The translations under genes and the position numbers were made by a program. A stretch of 64,000 nucleotides of DNA from Yuukianura sp. NJ FZ-2021. Taxonomy: Eukaryota. Position 1 is the first letter of the stretch; every line of letters starts with the position of its first letter. Positions 8,823-55,085 of this stretch are shown here, in pieces. The DNA lies in the NCBI GenBank assembly GCA_046563655.1, contig CM102286.1, positions 5,146,001-5,210,000 of the forward strand, in the 5' to 3' direction. A model generated the notes under the pieces. That model was not told where the DNA came from. It saw only the letters and a program-made list of their open reading frames with translations, and ran no database searches.

Positions 8823-11800
8823 TCAGATGTGAAAGTTATCTTGCTCCACTGGCTTTGCAATCCAATCTCCATAACCGAGTTCACTTATAAAGTGAACGAA
8901 TTGCTTCTTTGAAATCTAGAAACCACAATTAGAATGTGTGAAATTGATTAGTTGATTGATTTAGTTGCGAATGTTCAAACCTGGTAATCAGTGGCGAGGT
9001 TTTTAGCAGCGTCATACACAATCTGGACGTTACCATCAAGTCGTCCAGTCGGATTTTTGTAGAATCTCAGAAATGCTAGAAACGCTAGACGTTTACATAG
9101 TCTAGAAGTCACTCCTGCTGGTTCACATCTTCCCTTCGGTGCTGAGATTATTTCATGTGAGTTCCAAGAACATGTCCACACTACGGCATGATTCGGTGAT
9201 TTCGACACACGTCGCTTCTCTTTGTCAGCGACCATAAGCAACTTCGGTTTATTGAGCCTGTAGGGTGGAGGTAAAGCGGCAGCTGGAAGAGACACGATTC
9301 TTCCATACATTGCCCTAAAGTAAGCAGTATATTTTAAAACGATTTACATTTGGAATAGAATTCTAGTGGTTTAGCTACCTCTTTAGGTGTACTGGATGAT
9401 GAAGACTTCCGAGTGTAATTGAAGAGTAGTAAACGGGATCCATAAATATAGAGAGAAGAGCCCCTTGAATTCCCAGTACGTTCCATTTGCATAACTTATC
9501 AGAACAGGACATCGTCCGAAGTGCATTCCCGAGCAATATGCCGTCCCATGTCTGTTGAACACCTAAAAATACGACAGATTAATATTTAATCATTCTAATT
9601 TATAACGTTTACAAAAGGACTGTCAAGCCATAAGTCATAAATACCATAGTCAAGCAAATTCGTCACAGGAATGGTTCCTTCTCCAGCTTCAATTTTGGCA
9701 CGAAGGACACCACGGCTCACTCTGTTTGGATGGGGATGTGGCAATTCTTCTCCCGGGGCACACGAAGAAGATGACTCCATTAACTCCTCTTCTGGGGACA
9801 CTTCGAGTCCCTTTGGGGAGAAGACCCTTATTCCACACAATAGTTTTACGTATAACATTCTCTCAAGTACTTAAGTGAAAATCAACCTAGGATTTTGCTT
9901 ACCTAGCATCTCCACAGGGAGAAGTACTGATATAAAGATGAAACTTTACATTTGGTTTCAAATTAAATCGTGGTACTCCATCATCGGTCGTGTTGCTCTG
10001 TTCCTCAAGTATTAATCCAGTCAAAGCGTCATCCGGATTTTCGTCATTCGAATCACTCTTCCTCATATTGATTAAGGTATTGATTTGAGAGTAAAGGAAA
10101 TCTCTCAGGCAGCGTGTTGCTAATATTTCGGCGTGGCAATCATTAAGAGAAACTCCCTGGTCGGACAAATACTCCCCGGCAATGCATTTGTTTCCAGTTG
10201 TGACCTTAACCCGCAAAAAAGAAAACGTCAGAGCGATAACTTGCTTGGTTTGGTTATTATCTATGAATAGTAACTTGAAGAATAACGTAAGCTTACGGCA
10301 ATGGCATGCATGTTTTCAATTAATGGCGAACCAAGTGTCATCACAATTCCCGCTAGAACCTATATGCGAATTGCACAAACATACGCAGAGTAGAAAATGG
10401 CGACACGGTTCGTTGCAGACTTTTCAGTATTCAGTCATCTCACCTTTTGTGAAGCATACGACGGCTCTTCCGCAACCAATTCAGCATACTTGTCCGTAAC
10501 AAGCCTACAAACCACGAATTAATGTTACAAATTGTATAGTAATTATATTTCCAAATACTTATCATTTACACACTTTTTGACACTCTGAGCAAATTGCAAT
10601 GAGTACTCCTCAGAGTCGGGATCTACTTCTGGTTTTTCTGGAGGCATCAGATGCGCTTGAGATGATGATTCATTGGTGATAACTTGCCGATTATGCGTTA
10701 CGATCTTCTTTGGTGTATTTCGATAATGGTCGTCAAGGTATTGAAGGCGTTGGGGGCCCAGTATAAAAGCAAGAGCTACCCCAGCAGCGTGTGCTTTTGC
10801 CAATCTTTTACTTCTTCCTAAAATGAGGGGAAAACCAATTTTAATGGGGCCGACTAAGTATTAGAAGCTATAAACTAAACTTTATAGGCAAAAATACCTT
10901 CTCCAGTAAATTCCAATTCTTGGAGCTGGAAATCCAATGGCTCCGATGTAATACTTGATTTGAGTGTGAGGTAAAGCTTGACTCTAAATACAGGATTATG
11001 TGGTGGGCCCTCGTTTTCAGTTGGCAAGTACTCATATCTGGCGTCTTCGGTTGAGCCCAGAATGCCGTACAAAGCACATACAGGTTGCTCAAACACATTG
11101 ATTTTCAGCAGTATTTTGAATGTATTCTCCGTCAGGACATATGCAGCTATATGTTTCAACAAAGAAAATTATTAGGACCAGATAGGACAAACATGGAGAA
11201 TCGAATAGTCTTGGAAGCAAGTATATTATCACACATACGTCGAATAGATTCTTGTATAGGTTGGGAATGTCCCGATACAGCTAAATCGGCTAAATAGTCC
11301 GAAGTAAAATCTGGTTCCTGGTCGTTTCCGAGGAAATTACCATAGTTGTCATTCATCAATTGATGCATCTCAAGACTCGTGTCCCAGTGCGGAGTAGTAA
11401 TCGCTTTCTTCCTGTCACCCTCTTCATCCAGGACCATGGGCAATACGTAGTCCAATTCTGCCAGAATTGTTTCGGCAAGGTTTTGCTTGGCCAACCTCTT
11501 GGAACGTCCCCTTCCAGTGTACGATTTGTTGTTGGGTGGCTAAGGAAAGTTTGAAGGGCTTTGTCATAAATCTCGGAATAGTAAAGTAATGCTTGTTGTT
11601 CGTTTTAGATTAGAGCATATGTTGGGAATTGTGCAAAGTAGAAATTACCGTACCGGTAAAGAAACTGTGACCTCAAACCAAGGTTCATGGGGCGCGCCTA
11701 ACTGGTTCGAAAAGTTATAAACCAATCCAGGATACTTCTCATTTAATAAGGCGGCTGGTGTTTTCCCAGCTCCTAGAATTTTTTGCCGTTTACTACTATC

Positions 11801-13992: not shown

Positions 13993-14873
13993 CTGATGCC
14001 CTTGGTATTAAATGACACTGAACTCTAAAATTTTATGTAATGCCCTTGGTATTAAATGACACTGACCTCTAAAATTTTTTCTGATGCCCTTGGTATTAAA
14101 TGATACTGAACTCTAAAATTTTTTCTGATGCCCTTGATACTAAATGACACTGACCTCTAAAATTTTTTCTGATGCCCTTGGTATTAAATGACACTGAACT
14201 CTAAAATTTTATCTGATGGCCTTGGTATTAAATGACACTGAACTCTAAAATTTTATCTGATGGCCTTGGTATTAAATGACACTGAACTCTAAAATTTTAT
14301 GTAATGCCCTTGGTATTAAATGACACTGACCTCTAAAAATTTTTCTGATGCCCTTGGTATTAAATGACACTAACCTATAAAATTTTTTCTGATGCCCTTG
14401 ATACTAAATGACACTGAACTTTAAAATTTTATCTGATGCCCTTGGTATTAAATGACACTGAACTCTAAAATTTTATCTGATGGCCTTGGTATTAAATGAC
14501 ACTGAACTCTAAAATTTTATCTGATGGCCTTGGTATTAAATGACACTGAATTCTAAAATTTTATCTGATGCCCTTGGTATTAAATGACACTGAATTCTAA
14601 AATTTTATCTGATGCCCTTATTATTAAATGACACTGAACTCTAAAATTGATCTGATGCCCTTGGTATTAAATGATACTGAACTCTAAAATTTTATCTGAT
14701 GCCCTTGGTATTAAATGACACTGACCTCTAAAATTTTTTCTGATGCCCTTGGTATTAAATGACACTGACCTATAAAATTTTTTCTGATGCCCTTGGTATT
14801 AAATGACACTGAATTCTAAAATTCTATCTGATGCCCTTGGTACTAAATGACACTGAACTCTAAAATTTTATCT
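13993..14873. repeat. 44-bp tandem repeat, ~20 copies
   Basis: Consensus CTGATGCCCTTGGTATTAAATGACACTGAACTCTAAAATTTTAT is repeated head-to-tail with few substitutions and no spacers. Confidence 0.97.
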
Positions 14874-20487: not shown

Positions 20488-23400
20488 CCTACTAAACTTT
20501 TAACTTTTTGGAATTTGGAATTATGCTATTTAGAAAGAGTGATTTTCCTACTAAACTATTAACTTTTTGGAATTTGGAATTATGCTATTTAGAAAGAGTG
20601 ATTTTCCTACTAAACTTTTAACTTTTTGGAATTTGGAATTATGCTGTTTAGAAGGAGTGATTTTCCTACTAAACTTTTAACTTTTTGGAATTTGGAATTA
20701 TGCTATTTAGAAAGAGTGATTTTCCTACTAAACTTTTAACTTTTTGGAATTTGGAATTATGTCATTCAGAAAAAGTGATTTTCCTGCTAAACTTTTAACT
20801 TTTTGGAATTTGGAATTATGCTATTTAGAAAGAGTGATTTTCCTACTAAACTTTTAACTTTTTGGAATTTGGAATTATGCTATTTAGAAAGAGTGATTTT
20901 CCTACTAAACTTTTAACTTTTTGGAATTTGGAATTATGTCATTTAGAAAGAGTGATTTTCCTACTAAACTTTTAACTTTTTGGAATTTGGAATTATGCTA
21001 TTTAGAAAGAGTGATTTTCCTACTAAACTTTTAACTTTTTGGAATTTGGAATTATGCTATTTAGAAAGAGTGATTTTCCTACTAAACTTTTAACTTTTTG
21101 GAATTTGGAATTATGCTGTTTAGAAGGAGTGATTTTCCTACTAAACTTTTAACTTTTTGGAATTTGGAATTATGCTGTTTAGAAGGAGTGATTTTCCTAC
21201 TAAACTTTTAACTTTTTGGAATTTGGAATTATGCTATTTAGAAAGAGTGATTTTCCTACTAAACTTTTAACTTTTTGGAATTTGGAATTATGCTATTTAG
21301 AAAGAGTGATTTTCCTACTAAACTTTTAACTTTTTGGAATTTGGAATTATGCTGTTTAGAAGGAGTGATTTTCCTACTAAACTTTTAACTTTTTGGAATT
21401 TGGAATTATGCTATTTAGAAAGAGTGATTTTCCTACTAAACTTTTAACTTTTTGGAATTTGGAATTATGCTATTTAGAAAGAGTGATTTTCCTACTAAAC
21501 TTTTAACTTTTTTGTAATTTGGAATTATGCTATTTAGAAAGAGTGATTTTCCTACTAAACTTTTAACTTTTTGGAATTTGGAATTATGCTATTTAGAAAG
21601 AGTGATTTTCCTACTAAACTTTTAACTTTTTTGTAATTTGGAATTATGCTATTTAGAAAGAGTGATTTTCCTACTAAACTGTTAACTTTTTGGAATTTGG
21701 AATTATGTGATTTAGAAAGAGTGATTTTCCTACTAAACTTTTAACTTTTTGGAATTTGGAATTATGCTGTTTAGAAGGAGTGATTTTCCTACTAAACTTT
21801 TAACTTTTTGGAATTTGGAATTATGCTATTTAGAAAGAGTGATTTTCCTACTAAACTGTTAACTTTTTGGAATTTGGAATTATGTCATTTAGAAAGATTG
21901 ATTTTCCTACTAAACTTTTAACTTTTTGGAATTTGGAATTATGCTATTTAGAAGGAGTGATTTTCCTACTAAACTTTTAACTTTTTGGAATTTGGAATTA
22001 TGCTGTTTAGAAGGAGTGATTTTCCTACTAAACTTTTAACTTTTATGGAATTTGGAATTATGCTATTTAGAAAGAGTGATTTTCCTACTAAACTTTTAAC
22101 TTTTTGGAATTTGGAATTATGTCATTTAGAAAGAGTGATTTTCCTACTAAACTTTTAACTTTTTGGAATTTGGAATTATGCTATTTAGAAAGAGTGATTT
22201 TCCTACTAAACTTTTAACTTTTTGGAATTTGGAATTATGCTGTTTAGAAGGAGTGATTTTCCTACTAAACTTTTAACTTTTTGGAATTTGGAATTATGCT
22301 ATTTAGAAAGAGTGATTTTCCTACTAAACTTTTAACTTTTTGGAATTTGGAATTATGCTGTTTAGAAGGAGTGATTTTCCTACTAAACTTTTAACTTTTT
22401 GGAATTTGGAATTATGCTATTTAGAAAGAGTGATTTTCCTACTAAACTTTTAACTTTTTGGAATTTGGAATTATGCTATTTACAAAGAGTGATTTTCCTA
22501 CTAAACTTTTAACTTTTTGGAATTTGGAATTATGCTGTTTAGAAGGAGTGATTTTCCTACTAAACTTTTAACTTTTTGGAATTTGGAATTATGCTATTTA
22601 GAAAGAGTGATTTTCCTACTAAACTTTTAACTTTTTGGAATTTGGAATTATGCTATTTAGAAAGAGTGATTTTCCTACTAAACTTTTAACTTTTTTGTAA
22701 TTTGGAATTATGCTATTTAGAAAGAGTGATTTTCCTACTAAACTTTTAACTTTTTGGAATTTGGAATTATGCTATTTAGAAAGAGTGATTTTCCTACTAA
22801 ACTATTAACTTTTTGGAATTTGGAATTATGCTATTTAGAAAGAGTGATTTTCCTACTAAACTTTTAACTTTTTGGAATTTGGAATTATGCTGTTTAGAAG
22901 GAGTGATTTTCCTACTAAACTTTTAACTTTTTGGAATTTGGAATTATGCTATTTAGAAAGAGTGATTTTCCTACTAAACTTTTAACTTTTTGGAATTTGG
23001 AATTATGTCATTCAGAAAAAGTGATTTTCCTGCTAAACTTTTAACTTTTTGGAATTTGGAATTATGCTATTTAGAAAGAGTGATTTTCCTACTAAACTTT
23101 TAACTTTTTGGAATTTGGAATTATGCTATTTAGAAAGAGTGATTTTCCTACTAAACTTTTAACTTTTTGGAATTTGGAATTATGTCATTTAGAAAGAGTG
23201 ATTTTCCTACTAAACTTTTAACTTTTTGGAATTTGGAATTATGTCATTTAGAAAGAGTGATTTTCCTACTAAACTTTTAACTTTTTGGAATTTGGAATTA
23301 TGCTATTTAGAAAGAGTGATTTTCCTACTAAACTTTTAACTTTTTGGAATTTGGAATTATGCTGTTTAGAAGGAGTGATTTTCCTACTAAACTTTTAACT

Positions 23401-25997
23401 TTTTGGAATTTGGAATTATGCTATTTAGAAAGAGTGATTTTCCTACTAAACTTTTAACTTTTTGGAATTTGGAATTATGCTATTTAGAAAGAGTGATTTT
23501 CCTACTAAACTGTTAACTTTTTGGAATTTGGAATTATGTCATTTAGAAAGAGTGATTTTCCTACTAAACTTTTAACTTTTTGGAATTTGGAATTATGCTG
23601 TTTAGAAGGAGTGATTTTCCTACTAAACTTTTACCTTTTTGGAATTTGGAATTATGCTGTTTAGAAGGAGTGATTTTCCTACTAAACTTTTAACTTTTAT
23701 GGAATTTGGAATTATGCTATTTAGAAAGAGTGATTTTCCTACTAAACTTTTAACTTTTTGGAATTTGGAATTATGTCATTTAGAAAGAGTGATTTTCCTA
23801 CTAAACTTTTAACTTTTTGGAATTTGGAATTATGCTATTTAGAAAGAGTGATTTTCCTACTAAACTTTTAACTTTTTGGAATTTGGAATTATGCTGTTTA
23901 GAAGGAGTGATTTTCCTACTAAACTTTTAACTTTTTGGAATTTGGAATTATGCTGTTTAGAAGGAGTGATTTTCCTACTAAACTTTTAACTTTTTGGAAT
24001 TTGGAATTATGCTATTTAGAAAGAGTGATTTTCCTACTAAACTTTTAACTTTTTGGAATTTGGAATTATGTCATTTAGAAAGAGTGATTTTCCTACTAAA
24101 CTTTTAACTTTTTGGAATTTGGAATTATGTCATTTAGAAAAAGTGATTTTCCTACTAAACTTTCAACTTTTTGGAATTTGGAATTATGCTGTTTAGAAGG
24201 AGTGATTTTCCTACTAAACTTTTAACTTTTTGGAATTTGGAATTATGCTATTTAGAAAAAGTGATTTTCCTACTAAACTTTTAACTTTTTGGAATTTGGA
24301 ATTATGTCATTTAGAAAGAGTGATTTTCCTACTAAACTTTTAACTTTTTGGAATTTGGAATTATGCTATTTAGAAAGAGTGATTTTCCTACTAAACTTTT
24401 AACTTTTTGGAATTTGGAATTATGCTGTTTAGAAGGAGTGATTTTTATACTAAACTTTTAACTTTTTGGAATTTGGAATTATGCTATTTAGAAAGAGTGA
24501 TTTTCCTACTAAACTTTTAACTTTTTGGAATTTGGAATTATGTCATTTAGAAAGAGTGATTTTCCTACTAAACTTTTAACTTTTTGGAATTTGGAATTAT
24601 GCTGTTTAGAAAGAGTGATTTTCCTACTAAACTTTTAACTTTTTGGAATTTGGAATTATGCTATTTAGAAAGAGTGATTTTCCTACTAAACTTTTAACTT
24701 TTTTGTAATTTGGAATTATGCTGTTTAGAAGGAGTGATTTTCCTACTAAACTTTTAACTTTTTGGAATTTGGAATTATGCTATTTAGAAAGAGTGATTTT
24801 CCTACTAAACTTTTAACTTTTTGGAATTTGGAATTATGCTGTTTAGAAGGAGTGATTTTCCTACTAAACTTTTAACTTTTTGGAATTTGGAATTATGCTA
24901 TTTAGAAAGAGTGATTTTCCTACTAAACTTTTAACTTTTTTGTAATTTGGAATTATGCTGTTTAGAAGGAGTGATTTTCCTACTAAACTTTTAACTTTTT
25001 GGAATTTGGAATTATGCTATTTAGAAAGAGTGATTTTCCTACTAAACTTTTAACTTTTTGGAATTTGGAATTATGCTGTTTAGAAGGAGTGATTTTTATA
25101 CTAAACTTTTAACTTTTTGGAATTTGGAATTATGCTATTTAGAAAGAGTGATTTTCCTACTAAACTTTTAACTTTTTGGAATTTGGAATTATGTCATTTA
25201 GAAAGAGTGATTTTCCTACTAAACTTTTAACTTTTTGGAATTTGGAATTATGCTATTTAGAAAGAGTGATTTTCCTACTAAACTTTTAACTTTTTGGAAT
25301 TTGGAATTATGCTGTTTAGAAGGAGTGATTTTTATACTAAACTTTTAACTTTTTGGAATTTGGAATTATGCTATTTAGAAAGAGTGATTTTCCTACTAAA
25401 CTTTTAACTTTTTGGAATTTGGAATTATGTCATTTAGAAAGAGTGATTTTCCTACTAAACTTTTAACTTTTTGGAATTTGGAATTATGTCATTTAGAAAG
25501 AGTGATTTTCCTACTAAACTTTTAACTTTTTGGAATTTGGAATTATGCTATTTAGACAGAGTGATAGTGATTTTCCTACTAAACTTTTAACTTTTTGGAA
25601 TTTGGAATTATGCTATTTAGAAAGAGTGATTTTCCTACTAAACTTTTAACTTTTTGGAATTTGGAATTATGCTATTTAGAAAGAGTGATTTTCCTACTAA
25701 ACTTTTAACTTTTTGGAATTTGGAATTATGCTATTTAGAAAGAGTGATTTTCCTACTAAACTTTTAACTTTTTGGAATTTGGAATTACGCTATTTAGAAA
25801 GAGTGATTTTCCTACTAAACTTTTAACTTTTTGGAATTTGGAATTACGCTATTTAGAAAGAGTGATTTTCCTACTAAACTTTGTGGCGATTGGACAGCAA
25901 GTCCCCACTGCCAATCGCCAGGATGGAGAGTGTACGAAGTGGCCCGTGTCTCACTCCCATCACATACACCAGTTCCCTTCCCTTGACAAGCCAGATC

Positions 25998-26070
25998 GAA
26001 CCGGTAGCTCAATTGGTAGAGAGCATCTTCCCGGATTGAAGAGGTGTGGGTTCGAGTCCCACTCGGTTCC
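25998..26070 (+). ncRNA. tRNA-like cloverleaf within LTR (copies at 26301, 26604, 30938, 31241, 31544); nominal anticodon GGA, probably not a translational tRNA
   Basis: Acceptor GAACCGG/TCGGTTC, D stem GCTC/GAGC, anticodon stem TCTTC/GAAGA with loop CCGGATT, T arm GTGGG-TTCGAGT-CCCAC. Box A TAGCTCAATTGG and box B GGTTCGAGTCC, followed by T6. Atypical C33, 3-nt variable loop and C discriminator. Confidence 0.85.
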
Positions 26071-26074
26071 TTTA

Positions 26075-26080
26075 TTTTTT
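26075..26080 (+). terminator. Putative Pol III terminator (T6) after the tRNA-like unit, present in all six LTRs
   Basis: TTTATTTTTT lies immediately 3' of the acceptor stem. Confidence 0.55.
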
Positions 26081-26782
26081 CTGGCTTGTCCTTTGTTTCC
26101 CCTTTATCCCTCTCCCTAGTCCTCACATATGGCGCCCGACGCCGGGCGTACCGACCCGGCCGGAGGACTTTGGGGGCGGGGTGGTGTGGCGATTGGACAG
26201 CAAGTCCCCACTGCCAATCGCCAGGATGGAGAGTGTACGAAGTGGCCCGTGTCTCACTCCCATCACATACACCAGTTCCCTTCCCTTGACAAGCCAGATC
26301 GAACCGGTAGCTCAATTGGTAGAGAGCATCTTCCCGGATTGAAGAGGTGTGGGTTCGAGTCCCACTCGGTTCCTTTATTTTTTCTGGCTTGTCCTTTGTT
26401 TCCCCTTTATCCCTCTCCCTAGTCCTCACATATGGCGCCCGACGCCGGGCGTACCGACCCGGCCGGAGGACTTTGGGGGCGGGGTGGTGTGGCGATTGGA
26501 CAGCAAGTCCCCACTGCCAATCGCCAGGATGGAGAGTGTACGAAGTGGCCCGTGTCTCACTCCCATCACATACACCAGTTCCCTTCCCTTGACAAGCCAG
26601 ATCGAACCGGTAGCTCAATTGGTAGAGAGCATCTTCCCGGATTGAAGAGGTGTGGGTTCGAGTCCCACTCGGTTCCTTTATTTTTTCTGGCTTGTCCTTT
26701 GTTTCCCCTTTATCCCTCTCCCTAGTCCTCACAACTTTTAACTTTTTGGAATTTGGAATTATGCTGTTTAGAAGGAGTGATT

Positions 26783-27072
26783 CAAGGTGGCTGAACAAGA
26801 GGTTAAGCATTAAGTCTGTTTTTATATTTTTACACCCAAAATTTCAAAAATGAAAAGTCATCACGGCTGCTCTCGTTTCCTTGGCAATTTTTTATCCGAA
26901 TTTATTTTAATCATTTTTTTCCATTGCAAAATTCTAACTTTTTGCTCAAAGAAAATGATCAACAAGATCAGAGTAAAATCAGAGTAAAAAATTGTTTGCA
27001 GCGACATTTTTTCAAAACAGGACTTATTGCTTAACCTCTTAAAGCATTACAATGGTTGCTATAGCAACCTTG
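26783..27072. mobile_element. 290-bp MITE with 8-bp TSD (P-element- or hAT-like), copy 1 of 7
   Basis: TIR CAAGGTGGCT / AGCAACCTTG, TSD GAGTGATT on both sides, and subterminal inverted repeats AAGAGGTTAAGCATTAAGTC / GACTTATTGCTTAACCTCTT. Confidence 0.88.
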
Positions 27073-30000
27073 GAGTGATTTTCCTACTAAACTTTTAACT
27101 TTTTGGAATTTGGAATTATGCTATTTAGAAAGAGTGATTTTCCTACTAAACTTTTAACTTTTTGGAATTTGGAATTATGCTATTTAGAAAGAGTGATTTT
27201 CCTACTAAACCTTTAACTTTTTGGAATTTGGAATTATGCTGTTTAGAAGGAGTGATTTTCCTACTAAACTTTTAACTTTTTGGAATTTGGAATTATGCTA
27301 TTTAGAAAGAGTGATTTTCCTACTAAACTTTTAACTTTTTGGAATTTGGAATTATGCTATTTACAAAGAGTGATTTTCCTACTAAACTTTTAACTTTTTG
27401 GAATTTGGAATTATGCTGTTTAGAAGGAGTGATTTTCCTACTAAACTTTTAACTTTTTGGAATTTGGAATTATGCTATTTAGAAAGAGTGATTTTCCTAC
27501 TAAACTTTTAACTTTTTGGAATTTGGAATTATGCTATTTAGAAAGAGTGATTTTCCTACTAAACTTTTAACTTTTTGGAATTTGGAATTATGCTATTTAG
27601 AAAGAGTGATTTTCCTACTAAACTTTTAACTTTTTTGTAATTTGGAATTATGCTATTTAGAAAGAGTGATTTTCCTACTAAACTTTTAACTTTTTGGAAT
27701 TTGGAATTATGCTATTTAGAAAGAGTGATTTTCCTACTAAACTATTAACTTTTTGGAATTTGGAATTATGCTATTTAGAAAGAGTGATTTTCCTACTAAA
27801 CTTTTAACTTTTTGGAATTTGGAATTATGCTGTTTAGAAGGAGTGATTTTCCTACTAAACTTTTAACTTTTTGGAATTTGGAATTATGCTATTTAGAAAG
27901 AGTGATTTTCCTACTAAACTTTTAACTTTTTGGAATTTGGAATTATGTCATTCAGAAAAAGTGATTTTCCTGCTAAACTTTTAACTTTTTGGAATTTGGA
28001 ATTATGCTATTTAGAAAGAGTGATTTTCCTACTAAACTTTTAACTTTTTGGAATTTGGAATTATGCTATTTAGAAAGAGTGATTTTCCTACTAAACTTTT
28101 AACTTTTTGGAATTTGGAATTATGTCATTTAGAAAGAGTGATTTTCCTACTAAACTTTTAACTTTTTGGAATTTGGAATTATGTCATTTAGAAAGAGTGA
28201 TTTTCCTACTAAACTTTTAACTTTTTGGAATTTGGAATTATGCTATTTAGAAAGAGTGATTTTCCTACTAAACTTTTAACTTTTTGGAATTTGGAATTAT
28301 GCTGTTTAGAAGGAGTGATTTTCCTACTAAACTTTTAACTTTTTGGAATTTGGAATTATGCTATTTAGAAAGAGTGATTTTCCTACTAAACTTTTAACTT
28401 TTTGGAATTTGGAATTATGCTATTTAGAAAGAGTGATTTTCCTACTAAACTGTTAACTTTTTGGAATTTGGAATTATGTCATTTAGAAAGAGTGATTTTC
28501 CTACTAAACTTTTAACTTTTTGGAATTTGGAATTATGCTGTTTAGAAGGAGTGATTTTCCTACTAAACTTTTAACTTTTTGGAATTTGGAATTATGCTGT
28601 TTAGAAGGAGTGATTTTCCTACTAAACTTTTAACTTTTATGGAATTTGGAATTATGCTATTTAGAAAGAGTGATTTTCCTACTAAACTTTTAACTTTTTG
28701 GAATTTGGAATTATGTCATTTAGAAAGAGTGATTTTCCTACTAAACTTTTAACTTTTTGGAATTTGGAATTATGCTATTTAGAAAGAGTGATTTTCCTAC
28801 TAAACTTTTAACTTTTTGGAATTTGGAATTATGCTGTTTAGAAGGAGTGATTTTCCTACTAAACTTTTAACTTTTTGGAATTTGGAATTATGCTGTTTAG
28901 AAGGAGTGATTTTCCTACTAAACTTTTAACTTTTTGGAATTTGGAATTATGCTATTTAGAAAGAGTGATTTTCCTACTAAACTTTTAACTTTTTGGAATT
29001 TGGAATTATGTCATTTAGAAAGAGTGATTTTCCTACTAAACTTTTAACTTTTTGGAATTTGGAATTATGTCATTTAGAAAAAGTGATTTTCCTACTAAAC
29101 TTTCAACTTTTTGGAATTTGGAATTATGCTGTTTAGAAGGAGTGATTTTCCTACTAAACTTTTAACTTTTTGGAATTTGGAATTATGCTATTTAGAAAAA
29201 GTGATTTTCCTACTAAACTTTTAACTTTTTGGAATTTGGAATTATGTCATTTAGAAAGAGTGATTTTCCTACTAAACTTTTAACTTTTTGGAATTTGGAA
29301 TTATGCTATTTAGAAAGAGTGATTTTCCTACTAAACTTTTAACTTTTTGGAATTTGGAATTATGCTGTTTAGAAGGAGTGATTTTTATACTAAACTTTTA
29401 ACTTTTTGGAATTTGGAATTATGCTATTTAGAAAGAGTGATTTTCCTACTAAACTTTTAACTTTTTGGAATTTGGAATTATGTCATTTAGAAAGAGTGAT
29501 TTTCCTACTAAACTTTTAACTTTTTGGAATTTGGAATTATGCTGTTTAGAAAGAGTGATTTTCCTACTAAACTTTTAACTTTTTGGAATTTGGAATTATG
29601 CTATTTAGAAAGAGTGATTTTCCTACTAAACTTTTAACTTTTTTGTAATTTGGAATTATGCTGTTTAGAAGGAGTGATTTTCCTACTAAACTTTTAACTT
29701 TTTGGAATTTGGAATTATGCTATTTAGAAAGAGTGATTTTCCTACTAAACTTTTAACTTTTTGGAATTTGGAATTATGCTGTTTAGAAGGAGTGATTTTC
29801 CTACTAAACTTTTAACTTTTTGGAATTTGGAATTATGCTATTTAGAAAGAGTGATTTTCCTACTAAACTTTTAACTTTTTTGTAATTTGGAATTATGCTG
29901 TTTAGAAGGAGTGATTTTCCTACTAAACTTTTAACTTTTTGGAATTTGGAATTATGCTATTTAGAAAGAGTGATTTTCCTACTAAACTTTTAACTTTTTG

Positions 30001-30821
30001 GAATTTGGAATTATGCTGTTTAGAAGGAGTGATTTTTATACTAAACTTTTAACTTTTTGGAATTTGGAATTATGCTATTTAGAAAGAGTGATTTTCCTAC
30101 TAAACTTTTAACTTTTTGGAATTTGGAATTATGTCATTTAGAAAGAGTGATTTTCCTACTAAACTTTTAACTTTTTGGAATTTGGAATTATGCTATTTAG
30201 AAAGAGTGATTTTCCTACTAAACTTTTAACTTTTTGGAATTTGGAATTATGCTGTTTAGAAGGAGTGATTTTTATACTAAACTTTTAACTTTTTGGAATT
30301 TGGAATTATGCTATTTAGAAAGAGTGATTTTCCTACTAAACTTTTAACTTTTTGGAATTTGGAATTATGTCATTTAGAAAGAGTGATTTTCCTACTAAAC
30401 TTTTAACTTTTTGGAATTTGGAATTATGTCATTTAGAAAGAGTGATTTTCCTACTAAACTTTTAACTTTTTGGAATTTGGAATTATGCTATTTAGACAGA
30501 GTGATAGTGATTTTCCTACTAAACTTTTAACTTTTTGGAATTTGGAATTATGCTATTTAGAAAGAGTGATTTTCCTACTAAACTTTTAACTTTTTGGAAT
30601 TTGGAATTATGCTATTTAGAAAGAGTGATTTTCCTACTAAACTTTTAACTTTTTGGAATTTGGAATTATGCTATTTAGAAAGAGTGATTTTCCTACTAAA
30701 CTTTTAACTTTTTGGAATTTGGAATTACGCTATTTAGAAAGAGTGATTTTCCTACTAAACTTTTAACTTTTTGGAATTTGGAATTACGCTATTTAGAAAG
30801 AGTGATTTTCCTACTAAACTT

Positions 30822-31673
30822 TGTGGCGATTGGACAGCAAGTCCCCACTGCCAATCGCCAGGATGGAGAGTGTACGAAGTGGCCCGTGTCTCACTCCCAT
30901 CACATACACCAGTTCCCTTCCCTTGACAAGCCAGATCGAACCGGTAGCTCAATTGGTAGAGAGCATCTTCCCGGATTGAAGAGGTGTGGGTTCGAGTCCC
31001 ACTCGGTTCCTTTATTTTTTCTGGCTTGTCCTTTGTTTCCCCTTTATCCCTCTCCCTAGTCCTCACATATGGCGCCCGACGCCGGGCGTACCGACCCGGC
31101 CGGAGGACTTTGGGGGCGGGGTGGTGTGGCGATTGGACAGCAAGTCCCCACTGCCAATCGCCAGGATGGAGAGTGTACGAAGTGGCCCGTGTCTCACTCC
31201 CATCACATACACCAGTTCCCTTCCCTTGACAAGCCAGATCGAACCGGTAGCTCAATTGGTAGAGAGCATCTTCCCGGATTGAAGAGGTGTGGGTTCGAGT
31301 CCCACTCGGTTCCTTTATTTTTTCTGGCTTGTCCTTTGTTTCCCCTTTATCCCTCTCCCTAGTCCTCACATATGGCGCCCGACGCCGGGCGTACCGACCC
31401 GGCCGGAGGACTTTGGGGGCGGGGTGGTGTGGCGATTGGACAGCAAGTCCCCACTGCCAATCGCCAGGATGGAGAGTGTACGAAGTGGCCCGTGTCTCAC
31501 TCCCATCACATACACCAGTTCCCTTCCCTTGACAAGCCAGATCGAACCGGTAGCTCAATTGGTAGAGAGCATCTTCCCGGATTGAAGAGGTGTGGGTTCG
31601 AGTCCCACTCGGTTCCTTTATTTTTTCTGGCTTGTCCTTTGTTTCCCCTTTATCCCTCTCCCTAGTCCTCACA
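30822..31673 (+). mobile_element. Tandem three-LTR tRNA-bearing TRIM, copy 2
   Basis: Same sequence, same ACTT TSD and same flanks as 25882-26733, offset by 4940 bp. This indicates segmental duplication rather than an independent insertion. Confidence 0.92.
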
Positions 31674-31722
31674 ACTTTTAACTTTTTGGAATTTGGAATT
31701 ATGCTGTTTAGAAGGAGTGATT

Positions 31723-32012
31723 CAAGGTGGCTGAACAAGAGGTTAAGCATTAAGTCTGTTTTTATATTTTTACACCCAAAATTTCAAAAATGAAAAGTCA
31801 TCACGGCTGCTCTCGTTTCCTTGGCAATTTTTTATCCGAATTTATTTTAATCATTTTTTTCCATTGCAAAATTCTAACTTTTTGCTCAAAGAAAATGATC
31901 AACAAGATCAGAGTAAAATCAGAGTAAAAAATTGTTTGCAGCGACATTTTTTCAAAACAGGACTTATTGCTTAACCTCTTAAAGCATTACAATGGTTGCT
32001 ATAGCAACCTTG
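31723..32012. mobile_element. 290-bp MITE copy 2
   Basis: Same sequence and GAGTGATT TSD as 26783-27072. Confidence 0.88.
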
Positions 32013-35000
32013 GAGTGATTTTCCTACTAAACTTTTAACTTTTTGGAATTTGGAATTATGCTATTTAGAAAGAGTGATTTTCCTACTAAACTTTTAACTT
32101 TTTGGAATTTGGAATTATGCTATTTAGAAAGAGTGATTTTCCTACTAAACCTTTAACTTTTTGGAATTTGGAATTATGTCATTTAGAAAGAGTGATTTTC
32201 CTACTAAACTTTTAACTTTTTGGAATTTGGAATTATGTCATTTAGAAAGAGTGATTTTCCTACTAAACTTTTAACTTTTTGGAATTTGGAATTATGCTAT
32301 TTAGAAAGAGTGATTTTCCTACTAAACTTTTAACTTTTTGGAATTTGGAATTATGCTATTTAGAAAGAGTGATTTTCCTACTAAACTTTTAACTTTTTGG
32401 AATTTGGAATTATGCTATTTAGAAAGAGTGATTTTCCTACTAAACTTTTAACTTTTTTGTAATTTGGAATTATGCTATTTAGAAAGAGTGATTTTCCTAC
32501 TAAACTTTTAACTTTTTGGAATTTGGAATTATGCTATTTAGAAAGAGTGATTTTCCTACTAAACTTTTAACTTTTTGGAATTTGGAATTACGCTATTTAG
32601 AAAGAGTGATTTTCCTACTAAACTTTTAACTTTTTGGAATTTGGAATTACGCTATTTAGAAAGAGTGATTTTCCTACTAAACTTTTAACTTTTTGGAATT
32701 TGGAATTACGCTATTTAGAAAGAGTGATTTTCCTACTAAACTTTTAACTTTTTGGAATTTGGAATTACGCTATTTAGAAAGAGTGATTTTCCTACTAAAC
32801 TTTTAACTTTTTGGAATTTGGAATTATGCTATTTAGAAAGAGTGATTTTCCTACTAAACTTTTAACTTTTTGGAATTTGGAATTACGCTATTTAGAAAGA
32901 GTGATTTTCCTACTAAACTTTTAACTTTTTGGAATTTGGAATTATGTCATTTAGAAAGAGTGATTTTCCTACTAAACTTTTAACTTTTTGGAATTTGGAA
33001 TTATGCTGTTTAGAAGGAGTGATTTTCCTACTAAACTTTTAACTTTTTGGAATTTGGAATTATGCTATTTAGAAAGAGTGATTTTCCTACTAAACTTTTA
33101 ACTTTTTGGAATTTGGAATTATGCTATTTAGAAAGAGTGATTTTCCTACTAAACTTTTAACTTTTTGGAATTTGGAATTATGCTATTTAGAAAGAGTGAT
33201 TTTCCTACTAAACTTTTAACTTTTTGGAATTTGGAATTATGCTATTTAGAAAGAGTGATTTTCCTACTAAACTTTTAACTTTTTGGAATTTGGAATTATG
33301 CTATTTAGAAAGAGTGATTTTCCTACTAAACTTTTAACTTTTTTGTAATTTGGAATTATGCTATTTAGAAAGAGTGATTTTCCTACTAAACTTTTAACTT
33401 TTTGGAATTTGGAATTATGCTATTTAGAAAGAGTGATTTTCCTACTAAACTTTTAACTTTTTGGAATTTGGAATTACGCTATTTAGAAAGAGTGATTTTC
33501 CTACTAAACTTTTAACTTTTTGGAATTTGGAATTACGCTATTTAGAAAGAGTGATTTTCCTACTAAACTTTTAACTTTTTGGAATTTGGAATTATGTCAT
33601 TTAGAAAGAGTGATTTTCCTACTAAACTTTTAACTTTTTGGAATTTGGAATTATGTCATTTAGAAAGAGTGATTTTCCTACTAAACTTTTAACTTTTTGG
33701 AATTTGGAATTATGCTGTTTAGAAGGAGTGATTTTCCTACTAAACTTTTAACTTTTTGGAATTTGGAATTATGCTATTTAGAAAGAGTGATTTTCCTACT
33801 AAACTTTTAACTTTTTTGTAATTTGGAATTATGCTATTTAGAAAGAGTGATTTTCCTACTAAACTTTTAACTTTTTGGAATTTGGAATTATGCTATTTAG
33901 AAAGAGTGATTTTCCTACTAAACTTTTAACTTTTTGGAATTTGGAATTACGCTATTTAGAAAGAGTGATTTTCCTACTAAACTTTTAACTTTTTGGAATT
34001 TGGAATTACGCTATTTAGAAAGAGTGATTTTCCTACTAAACTTTTAACTTTTTGGAATTTGGAATTATGTCATTTAGAAAGAGTGATTTTCCTACTAAAC
34101 TTTTAACTTTTTGGAATTTGGAATTATGCTGTTTAGAAGGAGTGATTTTCCTACTAAACTTTTAACTTTTTGGAATTTGGAATTATGCTATTTAGAAAGA
34201 GTGATTTTCCTACTAAACTTTTAACTTTTTGGAATTTGGAATTATGCTATTTAGAAAGAGTGATTTTCCTACTAAACTTTTAACTTTTTGGAATTTGGAA
34301 TTATGCTATTTAGAAAGAGTGATTTTCCTACTAAACTTTTAACTTTTTGGAATTTGGAATTATGCTATTTAGAAAGAGTGATTTTCCTACTAAACTTTTA
34401 ACTTTTTGGAATTTGGAATTATGCTATTTAGAAAGAGTGATTTTCCTACTAAACTTTTAACTTTTTTGTAATTTGGAATTATGCTATTTAGAAAGAGTGA
34501 TTTTCCTACTAAACTTTTAACTTTTTGGAATTTGGAATTATGCTATTTAGAAAGAGTGATTTTCCTACTAAACTTTTAACTTTTTGGAATTTGGAATTAC
34601 GCTATTTAGAAAGAGTGATTTTCCTACTAAACTTTTAACTTTTTGGAATTTGGAATTACGCTATTTAGAAAGAGTGATTTTCCTACTAAACTTTTAACTT
34701 TTTGGAATTTGGAATTACGCTATTTAGAAAGAGTGATTTTCCTACTAAACTTTTAACTTTTTGGAATTTGGAATTACGCTATTTAGAAAGAGTGATTTTC
34801 CTACTAAACCTTTAACTTTTTGGAATTTGGAATTATGTCATTTAGAAAGAGTGATTTTCCTACTAAACTTTTAACTTTTTGGAATTTGGAATTATGCTAT
34901 TTAGAAAGAGTGATTTTCCTACTAAACTTTTAACTTTTTGGAATTTGGAATTATGCTATTTAGAAAGAGTGATTTTCCTACTAAACTTTTAACTTTTTGG

Positions 35001-43120: not shown

Positions 43121-44946
<1,826 letters not shown>

Positions 44947-45280: not shown

Positions 45281-48219
45281 ATGTCATTTCGTCGCTTAAA
45301 GTTGCAGTGTATAAACAGTTTCCTGAAGTATTCAACTGACACCAAGATGACACGAATTATCTCAATGCCAAATGAGACCGTCAGTCGTACGAAACGAGCG
45401 GAAATGGTGAAAGCCCGTCATCGCGAAAACAAGGAAATGTTCGGTGAACTCTTGGAAACAAAGCAGGACAAAGTCTCCAGAAGGAAGAAGACGGCAGAGC
45501 AAACTGGTCCTTATACAGATGCCATGCCACAAGAAATAGTATTTGTCGCCGTTAAGCAGCTTAACCAAGGTCCGAAAGTGGAGTGCGACAATTTCAAGCG
45601 GCCGACTTCGACCATTGTGCCACTGGCTTCCATTCCAATGGAACCTGCTGTTGATATTGCCAAGCATGGTGACCTAAACGGTGAAAAGAAAACTACAAAA
45701 GCAGTTGAAAGTAAATGGATGACCAAAAACTTTGCAAAACGCACCAAAATTTTTACTAAGGTTCCTCCACCAGTTAATGCCAATTTGGACCCTACGACGC
45801 CTCCATTGTATAAACAATCCACGGTGAGTGAGACGTCGTCAACACCAAGAGCTACAAATTTTTTGAAGGCAGAGATGACTCCAAGGGGTACGTCGATTAG
45901 TCAGAAATCCACATTTTTAATACTAATCAGTCTAATCAGCAACAATTTGACAGTATTCATTGACAAAGTTGTGATTTTTTTTTTTCAGAAATTCGCGAGA
46001 TTCCGACGCTAAAGCAATTCCTCGCGAGTATTCATCAATGTCAAGACATCAGTCACTATGGAGAGGTGAAACAAATCCGAGAAGGCGGCATAACGGGACT
46101 GACCACGGCTGAAGCTACTGATTCACCTCCTCGTGTATCTTCCGTTGATGCTAATGAGGAAGACAAGGTGATTGAAGGGTTGCATATGACACTGACAGAA
46201 GTGGTTGACTGCTTTCGCATTAATAAGTTTAAAAGCTGGTTCTTCATCTTCCTTAGGACAAGACAGAGGAGCCAATAATTACTGAGCGAGGAAGCACGGA
46301 AATTAACGGGCCGAATACAAGTTCTTCTCACGATTCCCTTTCATCTCAATCTCTTGATGATCTTCGTCTCGGTGTTGGCAATGAGGAGGACATGATTTCT
46401 GCAGGTTATAAATTATTTCCATTTGATAACCCAGGAAGACAAACAAGCGATGATAGGGATCTCCCCGCAAGCTCACCCGCACAAATCCAATCGCTTCCAT
46501 ATCCGCAAGCTGGAAATTGCAGTACATCATCATCGCTTCACTCAAATCCCAAATTTCCCAGTGTTACTCGAATTTTAGCTGCGACCATGTCAGCCCAACA
46601 ATTGAAAATTTTGAAATTATGGGAAGAGAAAATGATGCGGGAGCTTGGGGAAGATGGATTCAAGAGATACAAAGAGGGTGAGTTGATTTTAATCTTAACA
46701 TTATTCTGTATTTTGTTACAATTTGGCAAACCAAAAAAGTGGAATTTCTGCTTAGATGCTTCCCTAATTCCAGTCTCGTGATTTCAATTGTGGTTTTACA
46801 TGCGCTCTTATTGAAGTAGATTTGGTTTACAACAATGACATGAATTCCTTTGTTGTAAAAACTGGTATCACACTATTATACAAAGTGAATGGCATTTTTT
46901 TGCAACCCTACACCTTTGCAAATAAAAAAGACGACATGCAAGATGTTGAGTCGTATATTGTTGATCTCGATTCTTCAACGTACTAATTGCTTTGTAAATA
47001 TCCCTATCTTGACAGGAAAGTTTCATCCTTGGCAAGTTTATTCTTGCGAAACGCAAACTTCAGAATTTGAAGTGGATATAAATTGGAAGGATTTACAAAA
47101 GTCAAAGATGGTGCAAATAACAAGCTCATTTTTCTTTTGTCAGAGCTATTCTGTGGGAACCATTGTTTCCGGATTTATGAATTTTCACGTTAGCCTGTCT
47201 AAACCCGGATTTTATAAAATTCGCATCTCGTAAGATGCCATTCGCGCGTGGCCAAGGTCATTGACCCTCATGTACTGCTCTTACGGATTTTGTAAATGTC
47301 TTAAGTTAATGGATACGTTTTTTGCCATTTTTTCAGAGTTATTTGCAAACGGGAAACTGCTTCACAAAAATCTTCAATTTCTGCTCAGTGGGAAATCAAT
47401 TGATGATCTCGACATTTCGCAGGGCATCGAAGGACATTGGCAAAGTTTACAATGGGTTTTGGCCAAAATCCAGAAAACTTCCGTCTTGGAAAGCTACGTA
47501 GCTCATCCTGTGCTGTGTTACGGAGGAATAGTTGATTGTATCGCAACGTACAGGTATGGGTGTCAATCTTCTGAAATGGCATGTCGTATACATTTCCATA
47601 AAAGTATATTTGATTAAGCACCCTGTTGTATTGTCCAGAGGTCATTATCCTTCCTAACAACTTGAATCTTTCCCAAGTACCCCAAATTTATTGAATCTCA
47701 TCTCCTTTAAATCTGTTGTTAACCAATTACAGGGACAAATTGGTTCTTATTGATTGGAAGACTTCTGAGAAGCCGAAGCCGTTCATTTCCAATACGTATG
47801 ACACTCCGCTCCAAATTGCTGCTTACATTGGTGCCATCAATTATGATCCGAACTACAAATTCAAGGTGAGCATCATATTTAATTTTCAGATGTACATGAC
47901 ATTCTGTACAATACGTTACCTAATACATGACATTGCGTACATTACGCCGCCTACATTACATTTACATTACACTACGTACATTACACTGCTTACGTTACAT
48001 TACGTAGATTACATCGTGTCCATTACATTACGTTTACGTACAATACGAACATTTAATTCAAATTTTTGTTGTTGTGTACAGGTAGTTGAAGGGCTGGCTG
48101 TAATTGCCTACAAGGATGGAAAAGACTGCCAAGTTTTTCATTTGAGTTCTACGGATATCCTGAAATACTGGAAGCTATGGCTGAAGAGACTTAAACTTTT
48201 CCATTCCCGCGAGCCTTAA
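45281..48219 (+). CDS. MGME1: Mitochondrial genome maintenance exonuclease 1 (PD-(D/E)XK nuclease), multi-exon, long N-terminal extension
   Basis: [77 protein letters not shown] and W..RL C-terminus. The basic N-terminus is compatible with mitochondrial targeting. Exons in 45900-46400 are uncertain. Confidence 0.9.
47930..48045. repeat. Degenerate (TACAT/TACGT)n low-complexity tract in the last MGME1 intron
   Basis: Runs such as tacattacatttacattacactacgtacattacac. Confidence 0.6.
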
Positions 48220-54493: not shown

Positions 54494-55085
54494 ATGAGGG
54501 CTGTTTTATGGTAAGAGTAAATAAACAAAACAATGAAAAATTGACGTACCGATAATACGAGTAGAATTCTAAAATATTTAACGTAGGATCTCGATTCTGG
54601 TACTGTTGAGCTTCGATGTTAGAACAGCAATTGGTGAGGACCAAAACACGGCCCTAAAAAATCAACTGGGACAAATGGGCCAAATGGTGGTAAACGTTTT
54701 CACAGATCTTGGAAATCTGAAATCCGCTTTTGAAAAAGGTGGCTGCACTGGAATAATTAAAAGCAGATTGCAAGAATTTGACGCCCAATTCAAGAAAGTG
54801 AATCACCTTTGTATGACTCGGAAACCAGACGGGGATGATTTAGTTAGACTTTCTGAAGACATCAAGAAAATGGAAGAAGACTACGACCATGTGAGACAAA
54901 CTTTGGAGTGGGTTAAGAAAGACCAATACATAAGTCCTGACATTTGCAAGTATGATGTTCATGTTTTTTTGGGGAATATTTTGAATTGGTATGACAAATT
55001 TGAAAAGGGATTGCTGGAACCTTGCACCGATGACACACCAGCAATCAAGGGTGCTGTATCTGATGCGTTGAAAAAATACGAATAA
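54494..55085 (+). CDS. Secreted alpha-helical protein of unknown function, paralog A (171 aa, 2 exons)
   Basis: Exon 54494-54510, GTAAGA..TAG intron, and exon 54587-55085 give MRAVLWISILVLLSFDVRTAIG-EDQ..., a signal-peptide-like N-terminus. 4 Cys. AATAAA downstream. Structure is conserved in the paralog. Confidence 0.82.

Follow-up and report, generated by a model that had tools for sequence, protein, structure and literature searches.

A probable Helenus-type TRIM with a tRNA-derived module in each LTR, in satellite DNA of a probable springtail

Introduction

Helenus elements, described in 2024, are TRIMs that carry a tRNA-like sequence with conserved A and B boxes in their LTRs and a PBS and PPT between them (Kojima, 2024, PMC10886601). 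According to that article and its Table S1, their LTRs range from 104 to 323 bp, their internal parts from 43 to 621 bp and their full lengths from 311 to 1263 bp, and all animal families with a recorded value have a 4-bp TSD. The A and B boxes are given there as the part conserved across Helenus families, and the proposed origin is the insertion of a SINE2 into the LTR of a TRIM. The arthropod hosts it names are Hymenoptera only (parasitoid and gall wasps), with internal parts of 197-621 bp, and a tandem LTR-internal-LTR array is in print for LTR-11_DR (PMC10886601). In plants, the TRIM Cassandra bears a 5S rRNA-derived Pol III unit in its LTRs and forms tandem arrays of LTR and internal domain (PMC7215508). 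The TSD of Ajax, in turn, is given as 5 bp (PMC10886601). Tandem arrays, with mechanisms for their formation, are also in print for plant, cestode and bivalve TRIMs.

Here we analyse an array of short direct repeats in a 64,000-nt stretch of DNA (the window). A first-pass annotation, made from the letters, had seen in it a TRIM-type LTR element, each LTR of which carries a tRNA-like Pol III cassette, and this structural reading holds. Its two points of comparison from the literature, the tandem arrays of Cassandra and the tRNA-like LTRs and 4-bp animal TSDs of Helenus, agree with what the sources cited above report. In our judgement the locus is, with a probability of about 0.85, a Helenus-type TRIM with a tRNA-derived module in each LTR, inserted in the satellite of a probable springtail.

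Results

Structure and insertion site

The array at 25882-26733 (852 bp) consists of three LTRs and two spacers, the canonical unit being LTR-57 bp-LTR with a length of 549 bp (Table 1). Coordinates and alignment bear out the order, the TG..CA ends and the identity of the LTRs proposed in the first-pass annotation, and the PBS and PPT-like tract that it had noted are present in both 57-bp spacers. The 4-bp TSD is likewise found as ACTT on both sides; a 5-bp TSD (ACTTT) results only if the LTR start is taken as GT rather than TG, a reading that exists because base 25882 is a T that is also compatible with the satellite. The array splits one 59-bp satellite monomer. When the element and one ACTT are removed, the satellite phase is exactly restored, and the left and right 59-mers both start with TTAACTTTTTGG.

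Table 1. Features of the array and its surroundings (positions within the window).
Feature	Position	Strand	Remarks
59-bp satellite array	15033-41700	.	about 450 copies; recipient of the insertion
TSD, left copy	25878-25881	+	ACTT; part of satellite monomer
LTR 1	25882-26127	+	246 bp, TGTG...CACA
Hairpin at LTR 5' end	25884-25920	+	10 bp, perfect; arms 25884-25893 and 25911-25920
Inverted repeat	25985-26090	+	11 bp, perfect (GACAAGCCAGA / TCTGGCTTGTC); encloses tRNA-like part and T6
tRNA-like cloverleaf	25998-26070	+	73 nt; ARAGORN, Rfam tRNA, fold
A box	26005-26016	+	TAGCTCAATTGG; judged by eye against TRGCY...YGG pattern
B box	26049-26059	+	perfect
T6 run	26075-26080	+	Pol III terminator-like
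Internal region 1	26128-26184	+	57 bp: TA spacer, PBS, GC-rich palindromes, G-rich PPT-like tract
PBS	26130-26147	+	TGGCGCCCGACGCCGGGC; begins 2 nt past LTR end
PPT-like tract	26172-26184	+	GGGGGCGGGGTGG; G-rich, interrupted by one C and one T; abuts next LTR
LTR 2	26185-26430	+	246 bp, 100% identical to LTR 1
tRNA-like cloverleaf, further LTR copies	26301-26373; 26604-26676	+	
T6 run, further LTR copies	26378-26383; 26681-26686	+	
Internal region 2	26431-26487	+	57 bp, 100% identical to internal region 1
LTR 3	26488-26733	+	246 bp, 100% identical to LTR 1
TSD, right copy	26734-26737	+	ACTT
Second three-LTR array	30822-31673	+	identical, with identical flanks; within 4940-bp tandem segmental duplication

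Viewed simply as a tandem repeat with a 303-bp period, the array amounts to 2.8 copies, and every copy contains a tRNA-like sequence and its terminator. The same would be expected of a short tandem series of tRNA pseudogenes, or of a satellite with a 303-bp unit, formed without retrotransposition. Such an origin is scarcely credible, given edges that lie exactly at the LTR ends TG...CA, the duplicated ACTT and the restored phase of the surrounding satellite. It is further opposed by the tRNA-Lys-type PBS that lies 2 nt past each LTR end preceding a spacer, the G-rich tract just before the next LTR, and a whole LTR with other flanks in another organism (record 17, below).

The second array was absent from the first-pass annotation. 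It is a segmental duplicate and not an independent insertion: the copies of the ~5-kb block are about 100% identical, and identity falls at the edges of the block, to 0.77 at 22001-22500 and from 0.84 to 0.42 over 27501-29500. A neighbouring MITE is carried in the same 4.94-kb block. The identity of the LTRs had been taken to imply a very recent insertion; the identity stands, and the recency need not follow from it, because the whole block has been duplicated at ~100%. Homogenisation of tandem copies can also make LTRs identical. LTRs, internal regions and a 5-kb block that all agree at or near 100% are what mis-assembly of repeats can give as well, and the contigs described below cannot separate two-LTR from three-LTR forms, so that the three-LTR form, the copy 4.94 kb away, or both might be an assembly artefact of a two-LTR element in a satellite that is difficult to assemble. 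We regard this as quite improbable, since tandem TRIM arrays are common in the literature and the defined block edges with decaying identity are those of real satellite duplication.

The tRNA-like module

The claim of a cloverleaf with A and B boxes in every LTR is confirmed by ARAGORN, Rfam, folding and the B-box count. The Rfam tRNA match scores 46.2 bits (E 1.3e-07; gathering score 29), the minimum-energy fold of the 73-nt sequence is a perfect cloverleaf, and the B-box pattern GGTTCGANNCC occurs 6 times in the window where chance alone would give 0.14. A search of the whole window with Rfam at E up to 0.1 gave six tRNA matches only and no 5S rRNA. The sequence is unlikely to decode: its anticodon loop contains C33 and U37, and its "Ser GGA" anticodon is not accompanied by a long variable arm. 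On the + strand, the T6 run is the sole run of at least 4 T in each LTR and lies 5 nt 3' of the tRNA-like part. The arms of the 11-bp inverted repeat pair as a stem in the predicted LTR fold, and mononucleotide shuffling of the LTR yielded a repeat this long in 2 of 1000 trials. Visual inspection of the 116 bp that precede the tRNA-like part shows no obvious TATA-like motif.

The internal region and coding capacity

The motif TGGCGCCCGA has 4 matches against 0.57 expected by chance. By eye, the PBS agrees with the tRNA-Lys-CTT 3' terminus at 15 of 18 positions, the reference being the tRNA of Apis and not of the host; with tRNA-Lys(UUU) it shares 10 contiguous matches. The earlier assignment to tRNA-Lys(UUU) is thus retained for tRNA-Lys and not for UUU, Lys(CUU) giving the better fit on the Apis reference. 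Sibling contigs with A at 26138 extend the PBS to 12 contiguous matches (X2, 2/2 contigs; X4, 1/1; X5, 1/1), and the motif covering the G or A variant is TGGCGCCC(G/A)ACG. Sibling contigs in the same organism also include a PBS that reads TGGTGCCGAAAG, which we take to be tRNA-Phe-like, instead of the tRNA-Lys type.

The absence of coding capacity proposed earlier is upheld. The only long frame over the array, of 342 aa, is stop-free and lies on the minus strand; it exists because the period of 303 equals 3 x 101, and it is ruled out as a coding sequence by Pfam scores that are all below the curated cut-offs. No run of at least 4 A is present inside the element.

Relatives elsewhere

Relatives were searched in contigs of runs X1, X2, X4 and X5 (X3, X6 and X7 were left out), which can show neither transcript starts, ends nor strand. 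Matching contigs numbered 563 (X1), 168 (X2), 91 (X4) and 2 (X5), at 85-100% likeness, some of them covering only the 30-nt satellite flank. LTR relatives with different flanks occur in many contigs and in two organisms, and by these comparisons the family is therefore probably multi-copy. In organism B (X4), a 1699-nt contig (record 17) contains a complete LTR, set in unrelated flanks and showing 21 differences; its match spans exactly 25881-26127, which supports the LTR boundaries. On either side, the consensus of the flanks is CCCT (a two-contig consensus at 0.65-0.67 agreement), pointing to a solo LTR bounded by a 4-bp TSD of its own. One X5 contig, from an RNA library that may hold DNA, covers the PPT end, an LTR, the internal region and the start of the next LTR at ~94% likeness; it proves neither transcription nor a tandem form. 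Exact searches with a 28-mer from the LTR 5' end and a 28-mer from the tRNA 3' half found 0 loci each in metagenome and genome contig collections, which contain little animal DNA and are uninformative on copy number.

The region 26005/26026-26079 alone matches many contigs with differing upstream and downstream letters, 28 contigs in X1 and 20 in X2, for example, diverging before 26026; therefore a related tRNA-like repeat seems to be present in the same genomes. Among the contigs listed, outside which 802 pieces lie, there is no LTR relative that lacks the tRNA part.

Discussion

Transcription and mobilisation

The reverse transcriptase and integrase would be supplied in trans by an autonomous LTR element, of the Gypsy or BEL/Pao type, whose duplications are 4 bp long and whose primer is tRNA-Lys. 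The Gypsy partner named in the first-pass annotation was inferred; the PBS 10-mer occurs in the supplement of Kojima (2024) only in the PBS of one BEL element. Within the window, 80 ORFs of at least 75 aa outside the satellite (12 + 68) were scanned against Pfam and contained no reverse transcriptase, integrase or gag, the only matches being two A_deamin and two KRR1 exons. The KRR1 gene groups with Collembola; homologues of the ADAR exon are only about 50% identical and spread over many phyla.

In the transcript model that we favour, positions 1-116 of the LTR would be U3, the tRNA-like part to the T run (117-199) would be R, and 200-246 would be U5. A Pol III transcript would then begin in the upstream LTR, at the 5' end of the tRNA-like part, run past the first T6 and terminate at the corresponding run in the LTR that follows. 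In the upstream LTR, however, the T6 should end Pol III synthesis within some 80 nt, which argues against a full-length Pol III RNA unless termination is leaky. The replication RNA might instead come from Pol II or from outside read-through, with the tRNA-like module as a passenger, derived by capture of a tRNA gene or of a tRNA-SINE head, that gives only an ~80-nt RNA per LTR. The T6 that follows each LTR's cloverleaf by 5 nt would fit such a passenger, as would the perfect inverted repeat that surrounds the module like a self-contained insert (2/1000 shuffles), the related tRNA-like repeat in the same genomes, and the SINE2-into-TRIM-LTR insertion that Kojima proposes for Helenus (PMC10886601). 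We nevertheless hold a passenger module to be somewhat unlikely: the A and B boxes are conserved across the Helenus families covered by that article, suggesting use (PMC10886601), the 116 bp upstream offer no TATA-like motif to the eye, and no LTR relative without the tRNA part is among the contigs listed.

The three-LTR form could have arisen by unequal LTR-LTR exchange at the locus or by template switching during reverse transcription, both of which fit in that they keep a single TSD pair. In a later step, the 4.94-kb satellite block with the element and the MITE would have been duplicated in tandem. A bolder version, which we consider unlikely, is an active Pol III-driven LTR lineage of springtails that uses the cassette as R, switches partners and feeds the higher-order repeats of the satellite. 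In it, transcription would pass the T6 of the upstream LTR and end at that of the downstream LTR, as retroviruses handle their poly(A) signal, and near-identical LTRs with different primers (tRNA-Lys versus the TGGTGCCGAAAG type) would reflect a switch of the autonomous partner.

Implications

A Helenus-type family in a probable springtail would widen the arthropod host range beyond Hymenoptera, and it fits repeated origins of elements of this kind. Such elements also affect annotation by inflating tRNA gene counts; here they produce six false "tRNA-Ser" calls in 6 kb. The element's promoter, T6 terminator, PBS and PPT all lie within 303 bp, which makes it a compact test case for read-through of Pol III terminators. 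Whether and how Pol III reads through an element's own terminator to make a template for retrotransposition is a question common to Cassandra, Helenus and Ajax.

Comparison with known systems

The biv-TRIM, the cestode TRIMs and the ant PbTRIM resemble the present element in size class, in their terminal direct repeats and in their solo and tandem derivatives; as far as the descriptions at hand go, their repeats differ in having no small-RNA gene, and biv-TRIM has no clear PBS. SINE2 elements share with it a tRNA-derived head with A and B boxes, non-autonomy and a multi-copy state. LTRs, PBS and PPT, however, are lacking in SINEs, which rely on LINEs. The present element possesses all of these and does not end in an A-rich or LINE-like tail; its LTR-PBS-PPT organisation and the absence of any run of at least 4 A rule out identity with a tRNA-derived SINE. 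In Cassandra and the nemertean Ajax, too, each LTR includes a module from a small-RNA gene together with its promoter and terminator, and the presence of that terminator within the LTR is as puzzling in Cassandra as it is here. Their module is 5S rRNA-derived, whereas the one here is tRNA-like, and identity with either is ruled out by the Rfam search of the window, which found no 5S.

The closest likeness is to Helenus. In the supplement consensuses of Kojima (2024), exact motif searches found 0 occurrences each of the first 8 and 12 nt of the LTR, the PBS 12-mer and the PPT 12-mer; only generic tRNA-arm motifs were shared, a 19-mer in Helenus-2_PeMa and a 15-mer that occurs four times, at least two of them in fungal families. 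Membership in a family named there is ruled out on these exact LTR-end, PBS 12-mer and PPT motifs, and the element, set apart by this search, is a new family of a known kind rather than a new kind of element. It agrees with the published Helenus accounts in its shortness, its lack of coding capacity, LTRs with TG..CA ends that contain A and B boxes, a PPT, a 4-bp TSD and tandem arrays, and its 246, 57 and 549 bp lie within the Helenus ranges for LTR, internal part and full length. Its tRNA-Lys PBS recurs in wasp and bivalve Helenus families, and in those accounts, too, the tRNA-like sequence is unlikely to decode. The hymenopteran families differ in their internal parts of 197-621 bp from the 57 bp found here in a probable springtail host, and in this respect the element stands nearer to the Helenus families that the same source gives for fish and brachiopods.

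Structure and Insertion Site of the Array

A single monomer of a 59-bp satellite is split by three 246-bp direct repeats with two 57-bp spacers between them, and in a scripted comparison the repeats were mutually 100% identical (3/3), as were the spacers (2/2). The LTRs begin with TGTG and end with CACA, and excision of the array and one ACTT in silico leaves two 59-mers that each start TTAACTTTTTGG, so that removal of the array exactly restores the satellite phase. The insertion is precise and of the retrotransposon type, and the three identical LTRs, 57-bp spacers, TG...CA ends and 4-bp duplication reported in the first-pass annotation were all confirmed; the very recent insertion that had been read from the identity of the LTRs needs correction. 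The canonical TG...CA ends point to a 4-bp duplication, but the T at 25882 could equally belong to the satellite, so that this copy is also compatible with a duplication of 5 bp and an LTR that starts with GT. A contig of organism B (run X4, record 17) exactly spans 25881-26127, with unrelated sequence beyond both ends, and these breakpoints support the LTR boundaries. A 342-aa stop-free frame traverses the whole array, as the repeat period of 303 bp is divisible by three; as real coding sequence it was rejected, all Pfam matches being under the cut-offs, and it might be mis-annotated by gene callers.

Features of the array and its surroundings (window coordinates)
Feature	Position	Strand	Remarks
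Three-LTR TRIM array	25882-26733		
LTRs	25882-26127; 26185-26430; 26488-26733		
Internal regions	26128-26184; 26431-26487		
ACTT target-site duplication	25878-25881; 26734-26737		flanks array
tRNA-like sequence, first LTR	25998-26070	+	ARAGORN, Rfam
A box	26005-26016	+	reads TAGCTCAATTGG
B box	26049-26059	+	reads GGTTCGAGTCC
11-bp perfect inverted repeat	25985-25995 / 26080-26090		each LTR; brackets cloverleaf and T6 run
10-bp hairpin	LTR 5' end		
342-aa stop-free frame	25815-26843	-	
Second three-LTR array	30822-31673		
Tandem ~4.94-kb satellite block	22100-32500		carries TRIM array and MITE
59-bp satellite array	15033-41700		26.7 kb, about 450 copies
Second satellite	13993-14873		44-bp period, 20 copies, 92% matches; directly precedes 59-bp array
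MITE-like insertion	26783-27072 (duplicate near 31723-32012)		290 bp; 45 bp downstream of TRIM
8-bp satellite duplication GAGTGATT	26775-26782; 27073-27080		flanks MITE-like insertion
ADAR-like adenosine deaminase, two exons	8978-10315	-	A_deamin, E 5.7e-25 and 4.9e-13
KRR1, two exons	43451-44019	+	KH domains, E 1.9e-20 and 1.1e-29
174-aa stop-free frame pair	46257-46781 / 47695-48219	same within pair	1438 bp apart; no Pfam match
167-aa stop-free frame pair	54582-55085 / 55634-56137	same within pair	1052 bp apart; no Pfam match

A second, identical three-LTR array with identical flanks lies downstream. Comparing each position with the one 4940 bp further on gave an identity of 0.98-1.0 over approximately 22500-27500, against a background of about 0.3 elsewhere, and since the whole block is repeated at this identity, the second array is not an independent insertion: it is either a tandem segmental duplicate of the 4.94-kb satellite piece or an assembly artefact. 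The tandem block as a whole, whose identity decays at the edges, likewise represents a higher-order duplication that is still young, or else an artefact of assembly. The first-pass annotation, whose account was confirmed, had missed both this second array and the T6 terminator in each LTR. A scripted search of the 64-kb window found no further LTR or internal-region fragment beyond the two arrays. For the three-LTR form with its single pair of target-site duplications, unequal exchange between LTRs or a template switch in the course of reverse transcription could be responsible, both having been discussed for Cassandra and other TRIMs, and mis-assembly could also have produced it.

The neighbouring MITE-like insertion has terminal inverted repeats (CAAGGTGGCT / AGCAACCTTG) that match by eye at 9/10 positions and an inner 27-nt inverted repeat, and its 8-bp duplication suggests the hAT superfamily.

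The tRNA-like Module

Every LTR contains a 73-nt tRNA-like sequence, and the cloverleaf with A and B boxes noticed in the first pass is borne out by ARAGORN, by the Rfam tRNA model (46.2 bits, gathering score 29) and by a minimum-energy fold that is a perfect four-arm cloverleaf, with a folding energy not unusual against shuffles (z -1.04). The window has six matches to the B-box pattern where 0.14 would be expected, and a T6 run, the sole run of at least four T on the plus strand of each LTR, lies 5 bases past the cloverleaf. All the parts of a tRNA-gene-like Pol III unit are present in each LTR. In the anticodon loop, CCGGAUU, position 33 is C, position 37 is U and the anticodon is GGA ('Ser'), while the long variable arm that serine tRNAs have is missing; on established rules for tRNAs we take decoding to be unlikely, and the D and T arms seem to us to resemble tRNA-Lys(CUU) most. 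In most Helenus families, TRIMs with tRNA-like sequence in their LTRs (also named TRIMp3), this sequence is likewise held unlikely to decode (Kojima, 2024; PMC10886601).

The enzymes would be supplied in trans by a Gypsy or BEL/Pao element. If Pol III drives the element, U3 would correspond to LTR positions 1-116, R to the tRNA-like part up to the T run and U5 to the last 47 bp, and the T6 of the upstream LTR would have to be read through. Alternatively, the module could be a passenger that yields just an 80-nt RNA, with the replication RNA coming from Pol II or from read-through, for which count the terminator inside the LTR, the inverted repeat bracketing the module and the related tRNA-like repeats in the same genomes. 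When the LTR was shuffled 1000 times, only two shuffles reached the length of this inverted repeat, which may be a scar left by insertion of the module or may form an RNA stem in transcripts that read through; the relative in the RNA library X5 has a change within it, at 25994, with no compensating change listed. Folded together, the LTR and the internal region are more stable than shuffled sequences (z -3.1).

Internal Region and Primer Site

The internal region consists of TA, TGGCGCCCGACGCCGGGC as the primer-binding site (PBS), GC-rich palindromes and GGGGGCGGGGTGG, which abuts the following LTR, and all four occurrences of TGGCGCCCGA in the window, against 0.57 expected, fall inside these elements. 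By its sequence the PBS is of the tRNA-Lys type, accompanied by a G-rich primer tract. The Lys(UUU) primer proposed in the first pass needs correction, since only the first 10 positions match that tRNA. By contrast, 15 of 18 positions match by eye the 3' end of Apis tRNA-Lys-CTT, a bee rather than a host tRNA, as printed in the supplement of Kojima (2024; PMC10886601), and the first mismatch would form a G·U pair.

Relatives in Other Sequence Data

Exact-pattern scans of metagenome and prokaryote-genome collections gave no match. The 303-bp unit was detected in three runs of organism A, one of organism B and one sediment metatranscriptome, and contigs from four runs aligned to 25852-26214 at 85-100% likeness (X1 563, X2 168, X4 91, X5 2), some of them covering the 30-nt satellite flank only. 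A 116-nt contig of X1 (record 8) is identical across LTR end, internal region and LTR start, while the 1699-nt contig of X4 contains an entire LTR with 21 differences; its flanks read CCCT on both sides in a two-contig consensus with an agreement of just 0.65-0.67, a pattern suggestive of a solo LTR flanked by a 4-bp duplication of its own. PBS-covering contigs in X2, X4 and X5 have A at 26138, giving 12 contiguous matches to tRNA-Lys-CTT. In X2 record 16 and X5 record 25 (26114-26214) the LTR end is nearly identical and the internal region has 11 substitutions and one deletion, which convert the PBS to TGGTGCCGAAAG; this presumably fits the 3' end of tRNA-Phe, and such a sibling subfamily would be a primer switch inside a single family. 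These contigs portray the TRIM family as multi-copy and variable. The stretch from 26005 or 26026 to 26079 alone matches many more contigs with differing neighbouring letters, and thus points to related tRNA-like sequences, a repeat or a family of genes, in the same genomes.

Host and Comparison with Helenus

The 26.7-kb satellite lies between ADAR-like and KRR1 exons and hence not in a gene desert; the paired stop-free frames further along could stem from tandem repeats or from repetition of an exon. In a tree of KRR1 sequences, the 120 residues from the window group with two sequences, the nearer one 95% identical, and this trio is nested in a clade with three named springtails (SH-aLRT 99); a careful tree without the window row supports the springtail clade at 100/99. 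Judged by this one gene with limited sampling, the element probably resides in a collembolan. The arthropod hosts in Table S1 and Table 1 of Kojima (2024; PMC10886601) are Hymenoptera only, none of the springtail names tried occurs in its supplement, and a literature search returned nothing on TRIMs of this kind in springtails.

The LTR-end and PPT motifs tried and the PBS 12-mer are absent from the consensus file of that supplement, where the PBS 10-mer occurs solely within the PBS of a BEL element, BEL-4_NVi, and only generic tRNA-arm motifs are shared with its families. By motif matching, a limited test, the element is not among the listed Helenus families, and the novelty raised in the first pass holds to this extent: the family appears new and its host class probably so, but the kind was already described in 2024. 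The link to Helenus itself is upheld, as anatomy, size and 4-bp duplication agree with the published group (Kojima, 2024; PMC10886601). With an LTR of 246 bp, an internal region of 57 bp and a unit of 549 bp, the element falls within the Helenus range of 311-1263 bp; all animal families with a duplication recorded in Table S1 have one of 4 bp, Gypsy elements are the presumed partners of the animal families, tandem arrays are reported for LTR-11_DR, and the anatomy of the array described here is that of Helenus.
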